DNA of 64,000 nucleotides, from assembly GCF_044647545.1 (NCBI RefSeq), contig NZ_CP172818.1. The stretch is one strand, 5' to 3'. A program made the translations under genes and the position numbers. The DNA comes from Escherichia coli. Its GTDB lineage: Bacteria > Pseudomonadota > Gammaproteobacteria > Enterobacterales > Enterobacteriaceae. Positions 36,646 through 37,370 of the stretch are shown here, one piece after another (position 1 is the stretch's first letter; the number at the start of each line of letters is the position of its first letter). The notes beneath the pieces were generated by a model that saw only the letters and a list, made by a program, of their open reading frames with translations, searched no databases and was not told the DNA's origin.

Positions 36646-36665
36646 AAAGTGGTCTGACCTGATCA
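36646..36665. promoter_or_regulatory. FadR operator-like site upstream of fadI (aaAGTGGTCTGACCTGAtca)
   Basis: Matches the FadR consensus CTGGTCNGACCTG about 30 bp upstream of the fadI start. Confidence 0.5.
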
Positions 36666-36800
36666 TAGTCTTAACCATTTTTTTACATTTAGCCAAGTGG
36701 AGAAAAGGGAAAGTGGGAGCTATGACACAGAGAGAAAAGTAGAAGAGAAAATAAAACGCCCCCGCCAGGAACTGACAGGGGCGTACGTACCCGAGAGGAA

Positions 36801-37085
36801 TTAACGCAGACCCAGCTGGAAGATCAACATTTCAGCTTCGCAGGCAAAAGTGAAATCGATATCCAGGCGTACACCGTCAGACTCTTCAGTGAAAGTCGGG
36901 GTGATTTTGCACGGTTCGGATTCCACGCTACGGGCTTTTTCAGTCAGCGCCGCCAGCGTTTGTTCTGCTTCTGCGCGGTTTGCAAACACGCGGCTGTAAG
37001 ACGCGGTGCAGTCGGAGTTGTCCATAATGGTGCCAACATCCATACAGCAGCAAACCGGGGTTTCATCAGCACTACATTTACTCAT
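36801..37085 (-). CDS. yfcZ: Small protein YfcZ
   Basis: 94 aa from MSKCSADE. Confidence 0.8.
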   Translation of the reverse strand: MSKCSADETPVCCCMDVGTIMDNSDCTASYSRVFANRAEAEQTLAALTEKARSVESEPCKITPTFTEESDGVRLDIDFTFACEAEMLIFQLGLR

Positions 37086-37330
37086 CGTTGATTTCCTCTG
37101 TATGTGCACCCAAGGTGCCAGATAAACGTTGTGGATATTTTACGCTTCCGGAAAGTGCTGCTCCAGTTGTTAATTCTGCAAAATCGGATAAGTGACCGAA
37201 ATCACACTTAAAAATGATCTAAAACAAAATTCACCCGAATCCATGAGTGCGCCACCTCCAAATTTTGCCAGCTGGATCGCGTTTCTTAGATCATATTTGA
37301 AAAAAGATAGAAACATACTTGCAACATTCC

Positions 37331-37370
37331 AGCTGGTCCGACCTATACTCTCGCCACTGGTCTGATTTCT
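37331..37370. promoter_or_regulatory. Two FadR operator-like sites in the fadL promoter (AGCTGGTCCGACCTATA and CACTGGTCTGATTTCT)
   Basis: Tandem matches to the FadR consensus 80-120 bp upstream of fadL. Confidence 0.55.

Follow-up and report, generated by a model that had tools for sequence, protein, structure and literature searches.

Does the stretch of Escherichia coli chromosome around fadI, yfcZ and fadL, together with the fabB promoter some 19 kb away, carry working operators for the regulators of fatty-acid metabolism, or do the short motifs discernible there owe their appearance to a degenerate consensus? FadR is a GntR-family dimer whose ligand-free form binds 17-bp pseudo-palindromes, and its release from DNA by long-chain acyl-CoA is established knowledge. 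We examined the question in the window, by which we mean the whole 64,000-nt stretch of DNA analysed, and conclude, at a probability of about 95%, that the sites are operators native to the fatty-acid regulon of E. coli. This reading draws on identity to experimentally tested DNA, matrix ranks, conservation and geometry, all computed here; binding, ligand release and the direction of regulation are taken from the literature, and we infer the start site of fadI and the hexamers of the promoters. The genes concerned are arranged as follows.

16721-17941, minus strand: fabB, beta-ketoacyl-ACP synthase I (annotation)
33166-35310, minus strand: fadJ, adjoining fadI (open reading frames and annotation of K-12 and of an identical strain)
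35310-36620, minus strand: fadI, 3-ketoacyl-CoA thiolase (open reading frames and the same annotation)
36756-36784, minus strand: intrinsic terminator of yfcZ, a 13-pair stem with nine G-C pairs followed by a T run
36801-37085, minus strand: yfcZ, DUF406 (open reading frames and the same annotation)
37451, plus strand: alternative upstream ATG of fadL
37457-38797, plus strand: fadL, long-chain fatty acid outer-membrane channel (open reading frames and annotation)

The preliminary description had treated fadIJ as divergent from a yfcZ-fadL region; this orientation is incorrect, as fadJ, fadI and yfcZ all lie on the minus strand and the only divergent pair is yfcZ/fadL. The yfcZ terminator sits between yfcZ and the fadIJ promoter. 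Several complete E. coli chromosomes match the 1 kb surrounding the sites at 100% identity, and this stretch occurs in 5,425 of 5,426 genomes. Across the 836-nt interval between fadI and fadL, the window carries 11 substitutions relative to K-12 MG1655, none of them within the three operators located there, and the yfcZ-fadL spacer matches K-12 throughout.

One FadR match just upstream of fadI, two in tandem upstream of fadL, and a FabR-type palindrome abutting a FadR-like site at the fabB promoter had been described from the sequence by eye, and all are present (positions without strand assignment):

17989-18006: fabB FabR palindrome AGCGTACACTTGTACGCC, with a 7-nt perfect inverted repeat GCGTACA/TGTACGC
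18008-18024: fabB FadR activator site AACAAGTCCGATCAGCC, 1 nt from the FabR palindrome and overlapping the -35 element
36647-36663: fadI FadR operator AAGTGGTCTGACCTGAT, reading ATCAGGTCAGACCACTT on the fadI strand
37331-37347: fadL FadR operator 1 AGCTGGTCCGACCTATA, which extends over the spacer and the greater part of the -10 hexamer
37355-37371: fadL FadR operator 2 CACTGGTCTGATTTCTA, covering -1 to +16, with a strong left half and a degenerate right half

The FadR sites are 17-bp pseudo-palindromes belonging to the published consensus, aaCTGGTCnGACC(T/A)Gtt (PMC9329746). Searching the 64 kb with the core CTGGTCNGACCWG returned the fadI site and fadL site 1 as the only two matches with one mismatch; the fabB site carries two mismatches and fadL site 2 three, its left half being perfect.

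For a quantitative scan we built a symmetrised matrix from eight FadR sites, all from outside the window: four taken from FadR probes used in published gel shifts (fadBA, fabA and two fadD sites) and four that were the single outstanding matches in the MG1655 upstream regions of fadE, fadH, fadM and iclR. The matrix holds 13.2 bits of information in total, and scores were compared with a null of 200 first-order Markov simulations of the window.

fadI operator: 18.6 bits, rank 1 of 63,984
fabB FadR site: 14.5 bits, rank 2 of 63,984
fadL site 1: 11.2 bits, rank 4 of 63,984
fadL site 2: 6.8 bits, rank 27 of 63,984

In the null, the best score per 64 kb was 13.0 ± 1.8 bits, with 0.27 matches expected at ≥14 bits, 1.2 at ≥12, 4.1 at ≥10 and 12.9 at ≥8. 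The fadI site is significant window-wide by this measure. The fabB site (14.5 bits) and fadL site 1 (11.2 bits) score close to the best chance match and are therefore significant only given their promoter location, and fadL site 2 falls below any reasonable matrix threshold, so that its case is made by conservation and published binding. The check by weight matrix proposed at the outset is hence passed by the fadI, fabB and first fadL sites, the latter two dependent on location, and failed by fadL site 2 (6.8 bits, rank 27). Other high-scoring positions (44813, 24127 and 40098) lie within coding regions. Symmetrisation undervalues operators dominated by one half-site, such as fadL site 2 and the fadD site GGCTGGTCCGCTGTTTC (7.3 bits); the symmetrised form was kept to avoid circularity.

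We placed the promoter hexamers of fadL and fadI by conservation instead of by scanning, since a simple promoter scan overlooked both promoters: the published one at fadL has 19-nt spacing, and the one at fadI a weak -10.

36667-36696, minus strand: putative fadIJ core promoter, with -35 TTGGCT (36696->36691), 18 nt, and -10-like AAGACT (36672->36667)
36714-36729, minus strand: CRP-like candidate TGTGTCATAGCTCCCA, upstream of the fadIJ promoter, read from the sequence and partly conserved
37188-37209, no strand assigned: fadL CRP site 1 ATAAGTGACCGAAATCACACTT, its centre 157.5 nt before the start site of fadL
37319-37349, plus strand: fadL promoter, with -35-like TTGCAA (37319-37324) and -10 TATACT (37344-37349) at 19-nt spacing

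The fadI operator (core TGGTCTGACC) lies 27-43 nt upstream of the fadI ATG. It equals the K-12 fadIJ (yfcYX) operator in its 17-mer and in its location upstream of fadI, and is near the consensus; one substitution lies at 36638, 9 nt off an operator that is itself without difference. This K-12 operator goes back to Campbell, Morgan-Kiss & Cronan (2003), as relayed in a review (PMC9329746). According to the same review, from which we take direct binding of FadR at the fadI site, the start site of fadIJ, an operon repressed by FadR, is overlapped by the FadR site. The predicted promoter and start site are suggested by the invariance of two blocks, TTGGCT (36696->36691) and TGGTTAAGACT; across 76 distinct orthologous fadI upstream sequences, TTGGCT and the -10-like block are invariant or nearly so. 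The +1 would then fall near 36660, within the FadR operator. Measured from that predicted +1, the centre of the CRP-like candidate (36729->36714) would fall at -61.5, a usual distance for activation; PMC9329746 reports a CRP site for the fadIJ promoter, and its correspondence to TGTGTCATAGCTCCCA is putative.

At fadL, the start site has been located 95 nt upstream of the start codon (PMC3460868), which puts +1 at 37356 if counted back from the ATG at 37451. Relative to this published start, site 1 runs from -25 to -9 and site 2 from -1 to +16. The hexamers TTGCAA and TATACT, whose assignment to the promoter is presumptive, are invariant across the 80 species compared below. The oligonucleotides published for FadR site 1, FadR site 2 and CRP site 1 (Table 2 of PMC3460868) match the window with zero mismatches, and CRP site 1 lies in a conserved block within the published CRP gel-shift probe, itself exact in the window. 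In that work FadR bound fadL sites 1 and 2 with similar affinity in gel shifts, oleoyl-CoA abolished binding at both, the results were consistent with earlier DNase I footprints, and repression of fadL by FadR was modest only (PMC3460868). The comparison with footprinted sites that had been proposed is thereby answered: the fadL sites are identical to gel-shift DNA whose behaviour agrees with the footprints. Against the K-12 tandem operators of Feng & Cronan (2012, PMC3460868), the window differs in neither sequence, spacing nor placement with respect to -10 and +1, the gap between the two 17-mers being 7 nt as we delimit them and 8 bp as given there. A further FadR site at 37270-37285, in the conserved block CAGCTGGATCGCGTTTC, was considered and rejected, having no matrix score.

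Other features of the yfcZ-fadL spacer deserve mention in their own right. A promoter-like pair, TTGCCA-18 nt-GATCAT (37265-37294, plus strand), lies ~60 nt upstream of the known fadL promoter with both hexamers in conserved blocks, and might represent either another promoter of fadL or a binding site. The distance of the CRP site from the fadL start, 157.5 nt, is atypically large (PMC3460868). The same site (37188-37209) lies ~68 nt from the start implied by a conserved TAAAAT (minus strand, 37142->37137) upstream of yfcZ; we speculate that it might also serve yfcZ, the phasing not being ideal. Within the spacer, the block most conserved among the 80 species is AGACCCTACACTTCGCGCTCCTGTTACAG (37383-37411), in the fadL 5' leader, which contains no FadR site. 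It falls in a region without CRP binding (PMC3460868). An Rfam scan of the whole window gave zero matches, and so places no known RNA element in this leader. OmpR sites were reportedly found in the 37383-37411 region of fadL by Higashitani in 1993.

The fabB promoter combines both regulators. The FabR palindrome fills the 17-nt spacer between a -35-like TTGTTC (18012->18007) and a -10-like TATTGT (17989->17984), and the centre of the FadR site lies ~39 nt upstream of the predicted +1. Using the fabA FabR site as a pattern, we found a single match in the window, at the fabB promoter, against 0.3 expected; this palindrome thus has the features of an operator for FabR, a TetR-family protein, in being related to that of fabA, adjoining a FadR site and lying within a core promoter. 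The fabA probe shows the same order (FadR site, 1 nt, FabR palindrome). In comparison with K-12 fabB, arrangement and core sequences are equal, and the published fabB FadR/FabR probe (PMC4537474, PMC4259882) differs from the window by two flanking substitutions, at 17979 and 18026, both outside the two operators, so that the FabR palindrome and the FadR probe core are identical to it. Conservation of the fabB sites was assessed within E. coli strains, where the palindrome and FadR core are invariant even in divergent strains and the operators vary at one outer position; conservation of the FadR site does not extend to Vibrio or Shewanella (PMC4537474). In Salmonella, ChIP-chip and ChIP-qPCR place FabR on the fabB promoter in vivo (PMC4804515). 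This geometry fits activation by FadR and repression by FabR.

For the fad sites, a FadL query against species-representative genomes yielded 80 Enterobacteriaceae loci, from Escherichia to Serratia (67-96% protein identity), and the fadI-yfcZ/fadL order is kept in every locus that reaches far enough. In nearly every one of the 80 species, fadL sites 1 and 2 are the top two matrix matches, their separation being 24 nt throughout and their distance from the ATG constant; the exceptions are Intestinirhabdus alba, in which site 1 is absent from the top matches, and one metagenome-assembled genome, in which it is degenerate. Identity per column is at least 97% for the CTGGTC and GACCTATACT parts of site 1 and for ACTGGTCTGATTT in site 2, and CTGGTCnGACCTATA of site 1 is retained in nearly all species. 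The central base of site 1 is C, A or G among species, as the unspecified central position of the FadR consensus predicts. Mean information is 1.76 bits for site 1 and 1.85 for site 2, compared with 1.37 for the whole spacer and 1.1-1.2 for its upstream parts. The fadI operator is the best match in 78 of 78 loci (minimum 12.4, median 18.6 bits), is identical as a 17-mer in 58 of these, and lies 40-55 nt from the ATG in 77. Loss from orthologous promoters, which had been named as grounds for rejection, is thus not what is seen: the fadL sites persist in nearly all 80 species, the fadI site in 78 of 78, and the fabB sites within E. coli.

How far could these patterns arise otherwise? A matrix of only 13.2 bits is weak, with about four matches at ≥10 bits and about 13 at ≥8 bits expected by chance per 64 kb, and fadL site 2, at rank 27, stands about level with two dozen chance positions; taken by themselves, such scores would allow that the sites resemble a degenerate consensus by chance and have no regulatory role. 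Three of the four top matches in 64 kb nevertheless lie in promoters of known FadR-regulated genes, the other high ones lying within coding regions; the sites are nearly invariant over 78-80 species; and the DNA is identical to DNA for which FadR binding has been shown (PMC3460868). By location, conservation and identity to tested DNA, chance is effectively refuted, and we give it next to no weight. Slightly more room, although still very little, remains for the idea that the fadL blocks are kept for promoter function (-10, start and initial transcript) and that FadR makes no physiologically relevant use of site 2. Conservation of site 1 is indeed confounded with the -10 hexamer, as it overlaps TATACT, and that of site 2 with the transcript start, as it overlaps +1 to +16; the right half of site 2 is invariant despite not being FadR-like, and regulation of fadL by FadR is modest only (PMC3460868). 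Yet the CTGGTC halves, which the -10 hexamer does not include, are invariant all the same, the central base of site 1 varies just as the FadR consensus permits, and site 2 alone binds FadR as well as site 1 does and is released by oleoyl-CoA (PMC3460868), which makes a role in the promoter without FadR highly improbable.

A different matter is whether these boxes belong to FadR only, as they may be dual-input candidates also used by PdhR, a second regulator of the FadR subfamily (GntR family) that has been reported to bind fad promoters in vitro (PMC7660256). Genomic SELEX with PdhR gave peaks at fadI and fadE, and weak ones at fadL, fadM and fadH (PMC7660256). The PdhR box AATTGGTnnnACCAATT has the TGGTnnnACC core in common with FadR boxes; the FadR operators match it at 10 of 14 positions, the outer ones differing, and in the upstream regions of fadI, fadL and fadE no sequence comes closer to the PdhR box than the FadR operator (10/14):

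36647-36663: fadI operator
37331-37347: fadL site 1
326-342 of the fadE upstream region (MG1655): fadE operator

The sites proposed by the authors of that study score 7/14 and 8/14, and the one on the fadI probe, CAGCGGTAAAACCTGAC (36600-36616), lies within the fadI coding sequence (PMC7660256). It is conceivable, if doubtful, that the FadR operators at fadI, fadL and fadE are the real sites behind the PdhR SELEX peaks: matches of 10/14 number 26 in the window, which makes them weak evidence, and PdhR gave smeared shifts with the fadI probe (PMC7660256). Shared use by PdhR would accordingly be a tentative proposal with the odds against it. Were it true, a pyruvate sensor and an acyl-CoA sensor of one subfamily would compete for or share one box, and the PdhR boxes proposed in PMC7660256 would be misassigned, one of them within the fadI coding sequence.

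Returning to native FadR and FabR operators as the preferred reading, the placement of the sites suggests how they would act. FadR binding and its release by acyl-CoA have been demonstrated on DNA identical to the fadL sites and to the fabB operator core (PMC3460868, PMC4259882, PMC4537474). The sites that overlap the -10 or +1 (fadL, fadI) are positioned for repression and the one at about -40 (fabB) for activation, given our hexamer assignments. At fadL, two operators 24 bp apart cover the -10 hexamer and the start site, and at fadIJ a single strong operator covers the predicted start site; bound FadR would thus block RNA polymerase at both promoters. Fatty acids entering via FadL and activated by FadD give long-chain acyl-CoA, which on binding FadR releases it from DNA and de-represses the genes for uptake and beta-oxidation. 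At fabB, the FadR site just upstream of and overlapping the -35 element makes FadR an activator, the FabR palindrome filling the -35/-10 spacer makes FabR a repressor, and the two jointly set unsaturated fatty-acid synthesis. The coordinated fatty-acid control that had been suggested is upheld in that the sites coincide with experimentally characterised E. coli K-12 operators. A literature search for genome-wide FadR binding data (ChIP, SELEX, DAP-seq) found nothing usable.

These operators are already known, textbook parts of the E. coli fad/fab regulon, unchanged from K-12. The original observation is confirmed and its interpretation supported, subject to two caveats: how the genes are oriented, and a matrix score for fadL site 2 that stays under threshold. 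The result carries little weight as discovery, and its value is as calibration: a reading without tools can place known operators correctly, and a functional, footprinted operator (fadL site 2) can score well under a matrix threshold and nonetheless be recovered by phylogenetic footprinting over 80 species.

Elsewhere in and around fadL, the early coding sequence contains GCAGTGGC (37499-37506), complementary to the 5' seed of the small RNA RybB. A RybB-fadL pairing is mentioned in PMC9329746 and agrees with GCAGTGGC. Downstream of fadL (39164-40411) the window has two open reading frames (39164-39538 and 39516-40223), compared with one 415-aa hypothetical gene in strain FDAARGOS_497, from which it also differs between smrB and the fimbrial cluster (25421-27674). 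A search of the window for tRNAs with ARAGORN and Rfam found none. The tRNA-Arg(CCU) gene argW appears broken (42459-46356): its 5' part (42459-~42500) runs into a ~3.8 kb CPS-53/KpLE1-like prophage remnant (yfdN/P/Q/R-like, ~95% identical to K-12), after which only the last 15 nt of the gene, ctgcaggggacacca (46342-46356), follow as its 3' remainder. In a strain whose fadL region is identical, the tRNA-Arg at the argW spot is intact.
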